Position numbers and translations under genes: made by a program | Notes under the pieces: model-generated | Databases searched by the model: none | The model's input: only the letters and a program-made list of their open reading frames with translations | Told to the model about the DNA's origin: nothing | In this document: positions 5,664 to 41,235 of the stretch, in pieces | How the letters are laid out: each line of letters begins with the position of its first letter | How positions within the stretch are numbered: position 1 is the stretch's first letter | Source of the DNA: a bacterium | GTDB lineage: Bacteria > Patescibacteriota > Minisyncoccia > Phycocordibacterales > Phycocordibacteraceae | Reading direction: 5' to 3' | DNA length: 41,270 nt | Assembly (NCBI GenBank): GCA_023267755.1 | Contig: JAHFMR010000006.1 | Location: 1-41,270, forward strand

Positions 5664-6706
5664 TCTCCTTGATAGAGCTCCAGGACCGCAAGCTCCAGAG
5701 GTAGGGCGGGGATTGGCGCGTAACGGATGCGTTCTGCAGCAGTAAGGAAGGCAAGCATCGTCGCGTGAGTAATGTGGGACATCGTAAGTCCCACATTAGG
5801 GTTGGCGAACTTCTCAAGCGCAGCGAACTCATCAGTGCCAAGCTCTTGCTCGAGCTCTTCGCGCAGATCAGGCGCGTAGCGGATAAGCAGTGTGGTGCGC
5901 AGGGCCTCGAGCACCAGCTCGAGATAGAGCTTCATATCCGCACCGGCCTTTGCTGTCTTCTCGATAGCGGCGAGCGCCTTGCCTCGCTCGCCCGCGGCGA
6001 GCGCGCTGATGAGCGCGTGTACCTGTTCCTGTTTAGGCGCTCCCGTCACCTCCTCGACTATCTCGCGTGAGAGTTGCTTGGAGGTCCGGCCTCCAAGTGT
6101 TTTTTGGAGGATCGAGAGCGCGTCGCGATATGAACCGTCGCCCAGAAGCGCAATAAGCTCGGCGGCATCTGGAGCGAGCGTGTAGCCCTCCTTCTTCGCG
6201 ACTGCCACGACCATTTTGGCCGCTACAGCACGCGTCGGCTTCTTAAACTCGAACACCTGACAACGTGATTGCACGGTCTCGGGTACCTTCTCGAGCTCGG
6301 TCGTCGCGAGGATAAAGACTGCGTGTGCGGGCGGCTCCTCGAGCGTCTTGAGAAAGGCGTTCCACGCGCCCTTGGAGAGCATATGCACCTCGTCGAGAAT
6401 GTAGACCTTGTAGGGAGAGGAGAACGGGAGCGTGTAGACACCCTCGGTGAGCGCGCGGATATCCTCGACACTATTGTTACTCGCGGCATCAATCTCGTAG
6501 AGATCATTCTCACCACAGCCGATCTCGCGCGCGAAGATGCGTGCCACTGAGGTCTTACCTAGCCCGCGACTACCGGCAAAGAGGTAGGCGTGCCCGATTG
6601 TTTTACTCCTCGCTGCCTCTGCAAGCGGCTTGGTGACCTGCTCCTGCCCGACAACATCTGCGAAGGTCGCAGGTCGATGCGTTCTATATAAACTCTGATG
6701 CGCCAT
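5660..6706 (-). CDS. dnaX: DNA polymerase III subunit gamma/tau
   Basis: LYRTHRPATFADVVGQ, GSRGLGKT, EIDAAS, DEVHMLS, SRCQ; start set at ATG 6706 downstream of TGnTATACT. Confidence 0.95.
   Translation of the reverse strand: MAHQSLYRTHRPATFADVVGQEQVTKPLAEAARSKTIGHAYLFAGSRGLGKTSVARIFAREIGCGENDLYEIDAASNNSVEDIRALTEGVYTLPFSSPYKVYILDEVHMLSKGAWNAFLKTLEEPPAHAVFILATTELEKVPETVQSRCQVFEFKKPTRAVAAKMVVAVAKKEGYTLAPDAAELIALLGDGSYRDALSILQKTLGGRTSKQLSREIVEEVTGAPKQEQVHALISALAAGERGKALAAIEKTAKAGADMKLYLELVLEALRTTLLIRYAPDLREELEQELGTDEFAALEKFANPNVGLTMSHITHATMLAFLTAAERIRYAPIPALPLELAVLELYQGE
5770..5798. repeat. Palindrome inside dnaX: TAATGTGGGAC-ATCGTAA-GTCCCACATTA
   Basis: 11-bp stem; 17-nt core GGGACATCGTAAGTCCC identical to the intergenic copy within 41215-41235. 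Confidence 0.85.
6077..6097. repeat. Palindrome inside dnaX: CTTGGAGG-TCCGG-CCTCCAAG
   Basis: 8-bp perfect stem; AGGT-CCG-GCCT core resembles AGGT-TCA-ACCT at the transposase. Confidence 0.65.
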
Positions 6707-6824
6707 AGTGTCCAAAGTATAGCAAAGATAGTGAATTGACTTGCTTCTTTTAGAATTGCTTGACTTTATATATGTATGATGTTTAACTATACGTAGTCAA
6801 TCTTGACCTTTCCGGGAGCGCGTT

Positions 6825-7238
6825 ATGTCACAGATTCTGTGGGCTTTTGCAATCGGCTGTGGCTTCGTCCTGTGGCCGATTGCCGGGAAATTCCTCGGTA
6901 TGAACGGTTCCTGGGTAACCACAATCGTAGTCGTAGGAACATCCCTAAGTGCACTTGCTCTGGCTAGTCAATCGGCAATGGCGAGCGGAGTTCCTTCGAT
7001 ACGGAGTTGTCTACTGCTTCTGATCGCGGGAGTTGTGAACGGGGTCGCTCTGTATTTCTACAGTGTGAAGGCGGCTGACCCCCTCGTCTCAACCGGTGTG
7101 TTCATTACGACAGTGACGACCGTCATGCTAGTCATGGGGCCAGTCCTTGGCTATTTCCTGAACGGAGAAACGCTTTCCTCAAGACAGGTTGCTGGACTCA
7201 TTGGTGCTGTTGTGTCGGTTTATCTTCTTGCAGGATAA
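6825..7238 (+). CDS. Small multi-pass membrane protein, EamA/DMT-like
   Basis: 137 aa, about 5 hydrophobic helices, C-terminal LGYFLNGETLSSRQVAGL typical of the DMT superfamily; GGGAG upstream. Confidence 0.7.
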   Translation: MSQILWAFAIGCGFVLWPIAGKFLGMNGSWVTTIVVVGTSLSALALASQSAMASGVPSIRSCLLLLIAGVVNGVALYFYSVKAADPLVSTGVFITTVTTVMLVMGPVLGYFLNGETLSSRQVAGLIGAVVSVYLLAG

Positions 7239-7256
7239 GGAGGCCTGCGACTTCAT

Positions 7257-7278
7257 GGGGCACACTTCGGTGTGTCCC
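7257..7278. terminator. Hairpin between convergent genes
   Basis: GGGGCACAC-TTCG-GTGTGTCCC with a UUCG loop; weak U-tract. Confidence 0.55.
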
Positions 7279-8237
7279 TAACTATTTATAAGTTGTTCCA
7301 GCTCGGCGGCGGTGTTCGCCTCCATCAGCTTGGCGCGCAGGTCGGCGGCGCCGGGATAGCCGGTGATAAATGCTTTGATGTGTTTCTTCAATATTGAAAA
7401 GTTCTTGGAGGGTCTAAGCTGTTCGAAGAGGCGAGCGAGCTCAGTAAGCGCCGCGAGCTTCTCGACAAGCGGTGTGTCCTCGCTCTTACGGCCAGCAAAG
7501 ACCCAGGGGTTCCCGAACATCCCGCGACCGATCATCACGCCGTCGCAATCGGTCTCTGCCGCGAGCCGCTTCCCTTCTTCGACACTTTGCACATCGCCAT
7601 TGCCGATAAGGAGCGTATCGGGAGCGAGCGCGTCTCGGAGTGCTACTGCCCGCTTCATACGCTCCCAGTCGGCAGGTACGAGCGAGAGCTCCTTGCGCGT
7701 GCGCAGGTGGAGCGTGAGCGTAGCCGGCTGTGCCAGAAGAATCGGCGTGAGCCATTCCTCAAGTGTCTCCTTGTGGTAGCCGATGCGCGTCTTCACCGAC
7801 ACTGGGAGCCCCGCGGTCTTAGCGACGGCGATAAGCTCCACTGCAAGCGCCGGCGTCTTGATGAGTGCGGCGCCTGCGCCCTGTCGCTCGATGGCTCTAT
7901 CGGGACAGCCCATATTAAGGTCAACGCCATCGAAGCCGAGTTCGGCGACAAGCTTCGCGGCGTACGCGACCATCTCGGGCTTGCTTGAGAATATTTGCGC
8001 GACGATCGGATGTTCTTGCTCACTGTAAACGAGGTCGCGCATCAGCGGATTTTCAGCATCCGGCATCTTGGCGATCTCGCGTGTATGATACAGCCCGTCA
8101 GCCGAGACGAACTCGGTCCAGAAAACGTCCGGCTTGCCACGCGTGGCGACGAGCGCGCGGAAGGCCGCGTCGGTGACGTCGGCCATCGGCGCCATCACGA
8201 AGAACGGCTTCGCCAAGCGATTCCAAAAAGATTCCAT
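7278..8237 (-). CDS. dusB: tRNA-dihydrouridine synthase (DusB-like)
   Basis: MAPMADVTD, DLNMGCP, PVSVKTRIG, NGDV, DGVMIGRG. Confidence 0.9.
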   Translation of the reverse strand: MESFWNRLAKPFFVMAPMADVTDAAFRALVATRGKPDVFWTEFVSADGLYHTREIAKMPDAENPLMRDLVYSEQEHPIVAQIFSSKPEMVAYAAKLVAELGFDGVDLNMGCPDRAIERQGAGAALIKTPALAVELIAVAKTAGLPVSVKTRIGYHKETLEEWLTPILLAQPATLTLHLRTRKELSLVPADWERMKRAVALRDALAPDTLLIGNGDVQSVEEGKRLAAETDCDGVMIGRGMFGNPWVFAGRKSEDTPLVEKLAALTELARLFEQLRPSKNFSILKKHIKAFITGYPGAADLRAKLMEANTAAELEQLINS

Positions 8238-8259
8238 CGCTTTACCGTATCAGAAAGCG

Positions 8260-39973: not shown

Positions 39974-40000
39974 CCTCCCTCCTGATACAATCCCCTTGTT

Positions 40001-40075
40001 GCGTGCAGAGAAGTAGGGAGCAGCTAACCCTTGCGCCGAAAGGCGCGAGTACCGCTCTTGAAAATCCGCACTGCT
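40001..40075 (+). promoter_or_regulatory. Structured 5-prime leader candidate of rpsA
   Basis: Downstream of TGnTACAAT (39983-39991); GCGCC-GAAA-GGCGC hairpin plus nested short stems. Confidence 0.45.
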
Positions 40076-40084
40076 TTTATACAT

Positions 40085-41212
40085 ATGTCTGAAACGACAG
40101 AAGAGAAGAAGGTTGTCGCCCCCGCGGTGACTATCCACCTTCCCGATGGCCATCCGATGGCGGAGCTCCTCGGCGCTATCCCGACGCCGCCAGGCGCCGG
40201 TGACTTGGTCGAGGGCACCATCATCGCGATGGACCGTGGCCGCGTATACATTGACCTGCCTCCGTTTGGTACCGGCCTCATCTACGGCCGTGAGTACCTC
40301 AACGCCGCTGACGTCCTGCGCAAGGCTAATTCGGGCGACACTATCAGCGCTAAGGTTATCGACCCTGCTGGCCGCGACGGCTATATCGAGCTCTCGCTGA
40401 AGGAGGCGCGTCAGGCCGCTATCTGGGGCGAGGCCGAGACAGCTATCCTCGCGCAGACGGTCTACTCGCTCCCGGTGGAGGAGGCGAACAAGGGAGGTCT
40501 TATCCTCACCTGGCAGGGTATCCAAGGATTCCTCCCTGCTTCACAACTCTCTAAGGAGCACTACCCGCGCGTCCCCGAGGGCGATAAAGAAAAGATTCTT
40601 GGCGAGCTTATGTTGCTCATCGGTCATCCGCTCTCGGTGCGCATCATCACCGCTGACGCGAAGGAGGGTAAGCTTATCTTCTCCGAGCGCGCAGAGAACG
40701 AGGCTGAGGAGAAGGCGACCCTTATCGACAAGTACCAAGTCGGCGATACTGCCGAGGGAGAGGTCACGGGCGTGGTCGACTTCGGCGTCTTCGTCAAGAT
40801 TGAGCAAGGGCTCGAAGGGCTCGTCCATATTAGCGAGCTCGATTGGGGTCTCGTAGAGGATCCTCATTCACTCTTCTCAGTGGGCGACAAAGTGCGTGTG
40901 AAGATTATCGAGATTAAAGACGGCAAGGTCTCCCTCTCTATCAAGGCGCTTAAGGAGAACCCGTGGCACACCGCCGCCGAGCGCTACTCCAAGGGGATGG
41001 AGGTGCCGGGAGTTATCATCAAGTACAACAAGCACGGCGCGCTCGCTTCTATCGAAGAGGGTGTTGCTGGTCTCGTACACGTGAGCGAGTTTGAGTCGCC
41101 TGCGGCGCTTCGCGAGACACTCGAGCTCGGCAAGACGTATCCCTTCTCTATCGTGCTCTTCGAGCCGAAGGAGCAGCGTATGACGCTCACCTTCGCCGGA
41201 AAGAAGAAGTAA
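40085..41212 (+). CDS. rpsA: 30S ribosomal protein S1 (four S1 domains)
   Basis: GFLPASQL, DFGVFVKI, EGLVHISEL, SLSIKAL, GLVHVSE; start set at MSETTEE. Confidence 0.9.
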   Translation: MSETTEEKKVVAPAVTIHLPDGHPMAELLGAIPTPPGAGDLVEGTIIAMDRGRVYIDLPPFGTGLIYGREYLNAADVLRKANSGDTISAKVIDPAGRDGYIELSLKEARQAAIWGEAETAILAQTVYSLPVEEANKGGLILTWQGIQGFLPASQLSKEHYPRVPEGDKEKILGELMLLIGHPLSVRIITADAKEGKLIFSERAENEAEEKATLIDKYQVGDTAEGEVTGVVDFGVFVKIEQGLEGLVHISELDWGLVEDPHSLFSVGDKVRVKIIEIKDGKVSLSIKALKENPWHTAAERYSKGMEVPGVIIKYNKHGALASIEEGVAGLVHVSEFESPAALRETLELGKTYPFSIVLFEPKEQRMTLTFAGKKK

Positions 41213-41214
41213 GT

Positions 41215-41235
41215 TAGGGACATCGTAAGTCCCTA
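41215..41235. repeat. Intergenic palindrome TAGGGAC-ATCGTAA-GTCCCTA
   Basis: Core identical to the element inside dnaX at 5770-5798. Confidence 0.85.

Follow-up and report, generated by a model that had tools for sequence, protein, structure and literature searches.

What are small palindromes doing inside the core genes of a very small genome, and are they connected to the transposase gene that lies among them? The question is raised by a 41,270-nucleotide stretch from a bacterium of the Patescibacteria (Candidate Phyla Radiation, CPR), referred to here in its full length as the window. It contains a gene for a Y1 (HUH) transposase and a series of short hairpins, most of them within open reading frames (ORFs). 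The original prediction proposed several families of elements similar to repetitive extragenic palindromic (REP) sequences, translated inside essential genes, with one Y1/HUH transposase carrying one of the families. The answer favoured here, at a probability of roughly 0.8, is that the feature is real and represents several systems like those of REPINs (REP doublets forming hairpins) and REP-associated tyrosine transposases (RAYTs), copies of which persist in frame within core genes.

The assembly has 583,495 bases in 21 contigs, a G+C content of about 55%, and an estimated completeness of 98.7%; the window is contig C15. This genome is labelled G000 (REF). Other G-numbers denote genomes of the same genus, and C-numbers denote contigs of G000. 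Crude longest-ORF calling gives 651 ORFs covering 93% of the genome, and ORF calls outside the window are of this type. The stretch is also represented in groundwater metagenome runs; no RNA run is listed among them, and the four runs used consist of contigs. An assembly artefact is ruled out, as genomes assembled independently contain elements of the same kinds.

The following hairpins of the window belong to host genes or lie next to them.

5770..5798, in dnaX (5660-6715, minus strand): hairpin with an 11-bp stem and a 7-nt loop, ATGTGGGAC...GTCCCACAT family, coding for PNVGLTMSHIT.
6077..6097, in dnaX: second hairpin, CTTGGAGG-TCCGG-CCTCCAAG, coding for LGGRTSK; it resembles the CTTGGCGGTCNGACCGCCAAG family.
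11357..11377, in the ExoIII-family gene xth (11206-12063, plus strand): hairpin TATCGAAGTC-A-GACTTCGATA.
13986..14039, in topA (12107-14536, plus strand): REPIN-like inverted doublet of 54 nt, AAGGTTCGACCTT family, with a 20-bp stem and a 14-nt spacer, coding for PESRFDLKSESSRSNLDSD (aa 627-645).
18534..18574, in miaA (18018-18890, plus strand): doublet of 41 nt, CGAGGGGCACCCTCG family, with a 19-bp stem, coding for HEGHPRAARGCPSW.
18752..18785, in miaA: second hairpin, with a 10-bp stem and a 14-nt loop, coding for YVSSSAEATEDT.
25303..25379, in a cysteine desulfurase gene (class-V aminotransferase, 24668-25828, minus strand): hairpin of 77 nt, with 23-bp arms and one mismatch, coding for aa 150-176.
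41215..41235, extragenic: copy of GGGACATCGTAAGTCCC, 3 nt past the stop of an S1-domain gene (40031-41212).

Repeat families were defined from genome-wide counts of 14-mers and a listing of their copies. Their existence is established. The typical family consists of small hairpins in which the 3-nt loop is asymmetric, and these often form inverted doublets with a short spacer; there are about 4-15 half-sites per family. Two families had been expected to occur outside genes as well, and both do: ACAAGGTTCAACCTTGT, which surrounds the transposase gene of the window, and GGGACATCGTAAGTCCC, represented by the extragenic copy above, each have four copies in the genome. The CGAGGGGCACCCTCG family has about eight loci, which include miaA 18534, ligA, tsaD, trmD and a 278-aa ORF. 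The AAGGTTCGACCTT family has about six, which include topA 13986, dnaG, tyrS, eno and uvrA. The ATGTAGGACGT...ACGTCCTACAT family and its relative ATGTGGGAC...GTCCCACAT include dnaX 5770 and 41215; the core of the dnaX 5770 family occurs four times in the genome. The GTATCGAAGTCAGACTTCGATAC family includes 11357, and dnaX 6077 is a variant of the CTTGGCGGTCNGACCGCCAAG family at 3-4 mismatches from the copies in leuS, uvrA, C19, C21 and C4 (18285). Inverted doublets are located in topA, miaA, uvrA, dnaG, tsaD and a holB-like gene. The original prediction had not recognised the topA and miaA 18534 hairpins as inverted doublets of dispersed families, and it had missed the hairpin at 11357-11377. 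By eye and without statistics, the end tag GTAG is found only in the ATGTAGGACGT family; the remaining families have an AGG core. Copies within a family tend to share a reading frame and, only as far as they do, this leads to recurring peptide motifs, e.g. QGSTL and EGAPR.

Hosts of family copies are DnaX, ExoIII (xth), TopA, MiaA, DnaG, TyrRS (tyrS), enolase (eno), UvrA (two copies), LeuRS (leuS), LigA, TsaD, TrmD, a HolB-like protein, a Def-Fmt fusion and RecR. Our own tally places about 18 of the 28 non-flanking family sites inside long ORFs, as far as crude ORF calls allow. This share is below the 93% expected under random landing and far above that of classical REPs.

The doublets of topA (13986-14039) and uvrA (C18 1277-1326) have an identical 14-nt spacer, in the same orientation. 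Their 3-nt loops are flipped (TCG/CGA in one, CGA/TCG in the other), and single hairpins seem to invert independently of the doublet unit. At C6 766-788 and C14 4788-4812, hairpins at the 3' ends of ORFs provide the stop codon (TAG or TAA in the stem). Sixteen extragenic or edge hairpins, examined by eye and without family searches, gave no clear case of a gene split by a hairpin or of translational bypass.

The genome carries far more hairpins than its composition predicts. There are 101 perfect hairpins with a stem of at least 10 bp and a loop of 3-9 nt, against 3.6 expected from codon-block shuffles. For stems of at least 7 bp closed by a 3-nt loop, the count is 156, against 42.8 expected. 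In the window, which was also scanned for inverted repeats, each site was folded as DNA and compared with 200 dinucleotide shuffles. Nine hairpins had been proposed within intact ORFs. All nine sites sit in open frames, and seven fold better than shuffles. Strong z-scores are obtained for 5770 (-5.5), 6077 (-4.6), 13986 (-8.4), 18534 (-7.9), 25303 (-7.4) and 35336 (-3.3) and, outside the set of nine, for 11357-11377 (-5.0), 35134 (-4.6), 35839 (-5.7) and 41215 (-3.9). The hairpin at 18752-18785 is modest (z -2.3; 5 of 200 shuffles fold equally well). The other two proposed sites, 8683 and 39385, show no hairpin beyond chance (z +0.39 with a 6-bp stem, and z +0.66; 130 and 154 of the 200 shuffles are as good).

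The sites at 35134, 35336 and 35839 belong to the transposase locus.

35134..35152, upstream flank of the Y1 gene: hairpin TACAAGGT-TCA-ACCTTGTA.
35181..35840, plus strand: gene for a RAYT-like Y1/HUH transposase of 219 aa (Pfam Y1_Tnp, 40.5 bits; cut-off 23).
35336..35352, inside the Y1 gene: cognate hairpin at codons 52-58 (LQGSTLL).
35839..35861, downstream flank: hairpin that overlaps the stop codon of the Y1 gene.

The transposase gene is thus bracketed by one family, as had been proposed. However, it is not the only one; the genome has five Y1_Tnp-like genes, and the other four are 29-37% identical to the window copy. Three of the five score above the Pfam cut-off. The columns with the His of HUH and the catalytic Tyr are invariant in an alignment of the five paralogs, and the NCBIfam model REP_Tyr_transpos (NF047646) is the best and sole hit for all five proteins. 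A sequence search of the PDB with the Y1 alignment gave only a weak match, to ISDra2 TnpA across the HUH region (E 0.16). Judged by sequence, the Y1 proteins are a distant RAYT subfamily. For the transposase of the window, nearly all relatives belong to Patescibacteria, among them Paceibacteria, Nomurabacteria, Yonathbacteria, Kaiserbacteria and Saccharibacteria; the best match is 81% identical and comes from 'Candidatus Paceibacteria'.

The link between hairpin families and Y1 genes is established. Four of the five Y1 genes have their own hairpin family on both sides, and the gene on C11 has a pair upstream only. The CGAGGGGCACCCTCG family flanks the Y1 gene at C5 2988-3617, and the xth 11357 hairpin is identical to a hairpin flanking the Y1 gene of C2. 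The arrangement extends beyond this genome. In the genus, 31 of 41 genomes hold 1-10 Y1 genes, and like hairpins flank most of the genes at 30 genus loci. CPR-wide, both flanks have a hairpin arm in common in 33 of 55 loci; these 55 come from a set of 80, with the lower-ranked rows left out (L233-235, 237, 238, 241-244, 246-250, 252-255, 257-259, 261 and 264-266). Under a stricter rule, 48 of 114 Y1 loci are flanked by a cognate hairpin. The similarity of Y1 proteins also tracks the similarity of hairpin arms (rho -0.37, reached by 0 of 2000 permutations): arms differ by a mean of 0.9 mismatches at a Y1 identity of at least 60%, and by 4.1 below 35%.

Two of the five Y1 genes contain an extra cognate hairpin internally. 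In the genus such a hairpin lies at codons 52-60 in 8 of the 30 loci, and CPR-wide at codons 47-59 in 10 of the 55. In many RAYT-like genes the hairpin found at the flanks is also present within codons ~47-60 (L158, L159, L173, L175-L177, L179, L187-L189 and others). This region is of similar length in paralogs that have no hairpin, and the internal hairpin is not clearly an insertion. It may be a hot spot of self-insertion or a cis-acting site.

Host proteins were aligned with 12-23 orthologs each from the genus. Orthologs with a cut frame or a low k-mer score were dropped automatically (ftsQ retained 13 of 20 sequences and xth 11, including one mis-picked, unaligned frame). The alignments establish the hairpins as insertions or deletions (indels) in topA, at both miaA sites, in the cysteine desulfurase and at dnaX 5770; outside the window, two uvrA doublets and the tsaD doublet are also indels. 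The claim that the hairpin-coded peptides are indels therefore stands for these genes. It does not hold for dnaX 6077 or for the FtsQ-like gene, and it is unclear for the hairpin inside the Y1 gene.

In topA, the linker that connects the Zn ribbon to the C-terminal repeats varies in length among 14 orthologs, and the doublet sits within it. In run X1, a close relative is represented by a contig in which 13984 is followed by 20 different letters and then by 14041, so the unit is missing there exactly at the hairpin borders. Extra depth and rows with single-base gaps at 14006-14018 and 18552/18556 are due to cross-mapping of other family copies and are not variants of the locus. At 18534, MiaA of this genome exceeds the form most common among orthologs by about 7 aa, and at 18752 it exceeds 20 of 22 orthologs by 10 aa. 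The loop motif of the latter hairpin, TCCGCTGAAGCTACG, is found again at C5 7560 and C6 35470 with different stems. The dnaX 5770 loop is up to 6 residues longer than in the shortest of 20 orthologs, and at 25303 the desulfurase has about 27 aa more than the shortest orthologs. Low-occupancy (indel) columns make up only 3.2% of residues, yet they contain 39 of the 121 hairpins with a stem of at least 9 bp and 19 of the 31 with a stem of at least 12 bp.

Four sites show no indel in the genus alignments: dnaX 6077, the FtsQ-like site 8683, xth 11357 and a palindrome at miaA 18420. At dnaX 6077 the length is equal to that of 20 orthologs, which gives no sign of an insertion. At xth 11357 the D-F-D-I codons that form the right arm are conserved in 9 orthologs; differences are confined to the left arm, with its four codons. 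The FtsQ-like candidate (8683..8706, in an ORF at 8260-9210, minus strand) is rejected; it lies in a hypervariable linker where this genome is among the shortest of 13 sequences, and its nearest genomic match has 4 mismatches. The palindromes at miaA 18420-18446 and dnaX 5985-6003 are GC-rich and perfect, with 3-nt loops, and lie in fully conserved columns of equal length (ARVRxADAR and ALAxGER). They reappear as palindromes in many genus orthologs. The use of GCG/CGC codons for Ala and Arg seems to explain them better than insertion does.

The site in the metallo-beta-lactamase gene is of a different kind.

39385..39408, in a gene for a metallo-beta-lactamase-fold protein (38923-39588, minus strand): in-frame insert of 24 nt, PSNPLRAG, which is not a hairpin.

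This is a clean 8-residue insert, missing from 21 of 21 orthologs. A copy matching at 21 of 24 nt is found at C19 39148-39171, in opposite orientation, just after the DHH motif of a RecJ-like 578-aa ORF. The unit is a second, non-palindromic kind of small in-frame repeat.

Repeats and Y1 genes had been expected to occur together, and this genus-wide co-occurrence is established. In a comparison of eight core genes over 26 genomes, a higher number of Y1 genes went with a higher number of long hairpins in indel columns (Spearman rho 0.85), although the comparison is not phylogenetically independent, since the six RAYT-free genomes are also the most divergent. The 20 RAYT-positive genomes have 56 hairpins in 123 genes (0.46 per gene). 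The six RAYT-free genomes have 1 in 33 (0.03 per gene), though indels are present in them.

A mechanism can be proposed on this basis. Each system would consist of one single-copy RAYT-like Y1 (HUH) gene bracketed by its own short hairpin, with a stem of 7-14 bp and usually a 3-nt loop, and of a few more copies, singlets or inverted doublets, scattered over the genome. By analogy with IS200/IS605 and RAYT enzymes, the Y1 transposase would recognise its own hairpin on single-stranded DNA, and would cut and paste hairpin units. Because about 93% of the genome is coding, most landing sites would be genes. Selection would act as a filter, and the survivors would be only those copies that are in frame, lack a stop codon and lie in tolerant loops or linkers. 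Translation would continue through such copies, and core enzymes, the genes of which are probably essential, would gain roughly 5-27 residues. The finding of different families in one loop across species, and of one family in different genes, supports this explanation.

Several observations weigh against it. Copy numbers are tiny (about 4-15 half-sites per family), whereas classical REPs run into the hundreds. In this genome no Y1 gene bears a hairpin identical to that of the CTTGGCGGTC family, the 25303 element or the 18752 family, and the topA and dnaX families only resemble the hairpins of the Y1 genes on C15 and C5. Two of the five Y1 proteins fall below the Pfam cut-off (20.4-20.6 bits against 23), and the NF047646 scores (21-51 bits; 51 for the window copy) are below the cut-off of 80. 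Co-occurrence of RAYT genes and hairpins is confounded by shared ancestry. The same applies to the co-variation of Y1 proteins and hairpin arms; descent of whole loci would produce the same pattern. Finally, xth 11357, dnaX 6077 and the hairpin inside the Y1 gene show no length change, which simple insertion fails to explain.

These same-length sites also favour the strongest rival, in which palindromes arise in place, through template-switch replication errors or short-patch gene conversion in mutable loops, and the Y1 genes are bystanders or donors. One arm of the xth hairpin is pre-existing conserved coding sequence, the loops of the topA and uvrA doublets are flipped while spacer orientation is kept, and the 25303 element is single-copy (a search of the genome at up to 4 mismatches found no second copy); all of this would fit. 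However, an origin in place leaves unexplained the identical asymmetric units at unlinked loci, down to the 14-nt spacer, and the presence of one family in different genes of different species. Nor does it explain why Y1 genes are flanked by those units, or why such hairpins are nearly absent from RAYT-free genomes that have indels. It is considered unlikely.

A second rival concerns why the hairpins are kept. They could be retained for a function of their own, in DNA or mRNA structure or through the added peptide, rather than as neutral passengers; examples are translational pausing at domain borders, mRNA stability, protein-binding sites and surface variation of the host protein. The same loops are indeed used recurrently. 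The first miaA loop carries five different palindrome families among other species. In the desulfurase loop, G011 has a different hairpin with a 28-bp stem, and G035 has the ATGTGGGAC family, which is that of dnaX 5770. The tsaD loops of G006, G001 and G009 contain family-like peptides. Homologous inserts persist in a second species in three cases: the desulfurase (a diverged insert in G007), dnaX (an insert of equal length in G006) and uvrA (G036). The recurrence of the cognate hairpin at the same Y1 codon range points the same way. On the other hand, inserts are lineage-specific, differ between close species and are absent in RAYT-free relatives, and recurrence in the same loops is also expected from a selection filter on tolerant sites.

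Structural models bear on the same point. AlphaFold models of MiaA and the desulfurase were made from the genus alignments, with confidence given as the predicted local distance difference test (pLDDT). The MiaA model has a mean pLDDT of 83.7, and both inserts occupy coil or short helix, where confidence dips locally; the ten-residue blocks at the inserts have means of 69 and 79, and of 77 and 74, with adjoining blocks at about 90. In the desulfurase model (mean pLDDT 85.5), residues 152-175 are coil and 155-170 have a pLDDT below 50, the rest being confident. The alignments place the inserts in loops, and the models support the view that they occupy variable loops or linkers of the host proteins. 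The suggestion that the elements land in tolerant loops is borne out to that extent: in the models the inserts are predicted as coil or with low confidence. Such disorder argues against a function of their own, which is judged very unlikely. The remaining alternative, that the hairpins are a chance output of GC-rich codon usage and low-complexity Ala/Arg coding, applies to 8683, to 39385 and to the GCGCGC-type palindromes of miaA 18420 and dnaX 5985 in full-occupancy columns, but is rejected for the main sites in view of the genome-wide excess, z-scores of -4 to -8, the enrichment in indel columns and the existence of exact multi-copy families.

A broader reading can be considered, although it is doubtful. 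In it, the RAYT-hairpin systems of Patescibacteria would be a standing process that rewrites the loops of core proteins: in enzymes of replication, repair and tRNA modification, different families would strike the same surface loops repeatedly. Codons would also be replaced at unchanged length, as at xth 11357 and dnaX 6077, which would imply a templated conversion activity beyond cut-and-paste. The hairpin inside the Y1 gene would then be a functional cis site for autoregulation or self-processing.

Other features of the genome were noted in passing. The LeuRS ORF (C4 1541-4405) has a NUDIX-domain match at residues 383-503. A 472-aa ORF at C3 2795-4213 is a fusion of a peptide deformylase domain with a methionyl-tRNA formyltransferase domain. 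The contig of the window terminates in a GC hairpin with a 13-bp stem (41242-41270), a related copy of which is present on C20, and several 14-mers of its first 103 nt (positions 12 to 103) are common to two places on C5. Assembly breaks thus coincide with repeats.

Elements of the REPIN/RAYT type, known mainly as extragenic repeats of Proteobacteria, would thus also inhabit the smallest free-standing bacterial genomes. Such genomes have almost no intergenic space, and the elements would persist there mainly inside housekeeping genes. They offer a specific origin for part of the lineage-specific insertions seen in proteins of the CPR, and a caution for annotators and structure predictors, as short odd loops may be mobile DNA. 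They also provide a natural map of insertion-tolerant sites in TopA, MiaA, UvrA, TsaD and LigA. The genus, in which roughly a hundred Y1 genes each have a hairpin of their own, is also a rich set for studying the co-evolution of HUH transposases and their DNA targets.

Comparison with known systems shows both likenesses and differences. As in IS200/IS605 elements, there is a Y1 HUH fold (Pfam Y1_Tnp) and there are subterminal hairpins at both ends of the gene. Unlike those elements, the five Y1 genes are diverged paralogs (29-37% identity) with no near-identical copies, and the hairpins are dispersed rather than the gene. Rickettsia palindromic elements (RPEs; Ogata et al. 2000, as cited in PMC10969869) are described there as palindromic selfish DNA, present in frame in unrelated housekeeping genes of a reduced genome and compatible with the fold of the host protein. 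In-frame palindromic insertion into conserved genes is shared with these. However, RPEs as described are about 100-150 bp in length, with a conserved peptide and without a known dedicated transposase, whereas the elements described here are 21-77 nt and linked to Y1 genes.

The REP/REPIN-RAYT systems ('REPtrons') of Proteobacteria (PMC2817692, PMC3116915 and PMC3333891) are also close. These consist of a Y1/HUH gene bracketed by its own palindromes, with singlets and inverted doublets dispersed. The single-copy Y1 gene with its own flanking palindromes, the dispersed singlets and doublets, and the presence of several private families per genome agree with that account. The differences from it are the very short stems with 3-nt loops, the apparent lack of a general GTAG/CGTC tag, the presence of about 4-15 half-sites per family rather than hundreds, the location of about two thirds of non-flanking sites inside genes, proteins that score below the NCBIfam RAYT cut-off, and a cognate hairpin that is often within the transposase gene.

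Intragenic REPs are not unprecedented, since they have been described in other bacteria. According to the text of Di Nocera et al. 2013 (PMC3733652), REPs lie wholly within ORFs in several species, many of them in genes for replication and repair, DNA ligase and tRNA synthetases. REP dimers code for 20-30 residues, REP ends supply stop codons (described for GTAG REPs), and Rickettsia RPE-4/6 are equated with CGTC REPs. The singlets and dimers described there lie in frame in uvrA/uvrB, DNA ligase, polymerase and tRNA synthetase genes, which resembles the present elements, and here too stop codons are supplied from the ends of elements (C6 766, C14 4788). PMC3733652 deals with hosts from other phyla (Opitutus, Rickettsia, Thauera and others), whose families are large and have only a minor share of their copies inside genes. 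In the 583-kb CPR genome described here, most copies are intragenic, and across the genus orthologous loops are struck repeatedly. Literature searches brought up no paper that deals with REP/RAYT elements, or with palindromic insertions in coding sequence, for Patescibacteria/CPR; supplements (e.g. PMC3733652 Additional file 3, on hosts) were outside the scope and may bear on novelty. CPR names and intragenic copies are not mentioned in PMC6006769. The kind of element is thus already known (PMC3733652). The new points are the phylum, the presence of several low-copy systems in one very small genome and the predominance of intragenic copies; to these are added the repeated use of the same loops across the genus, the cognate hairpin inside the transposase gene, and the same-length sites.

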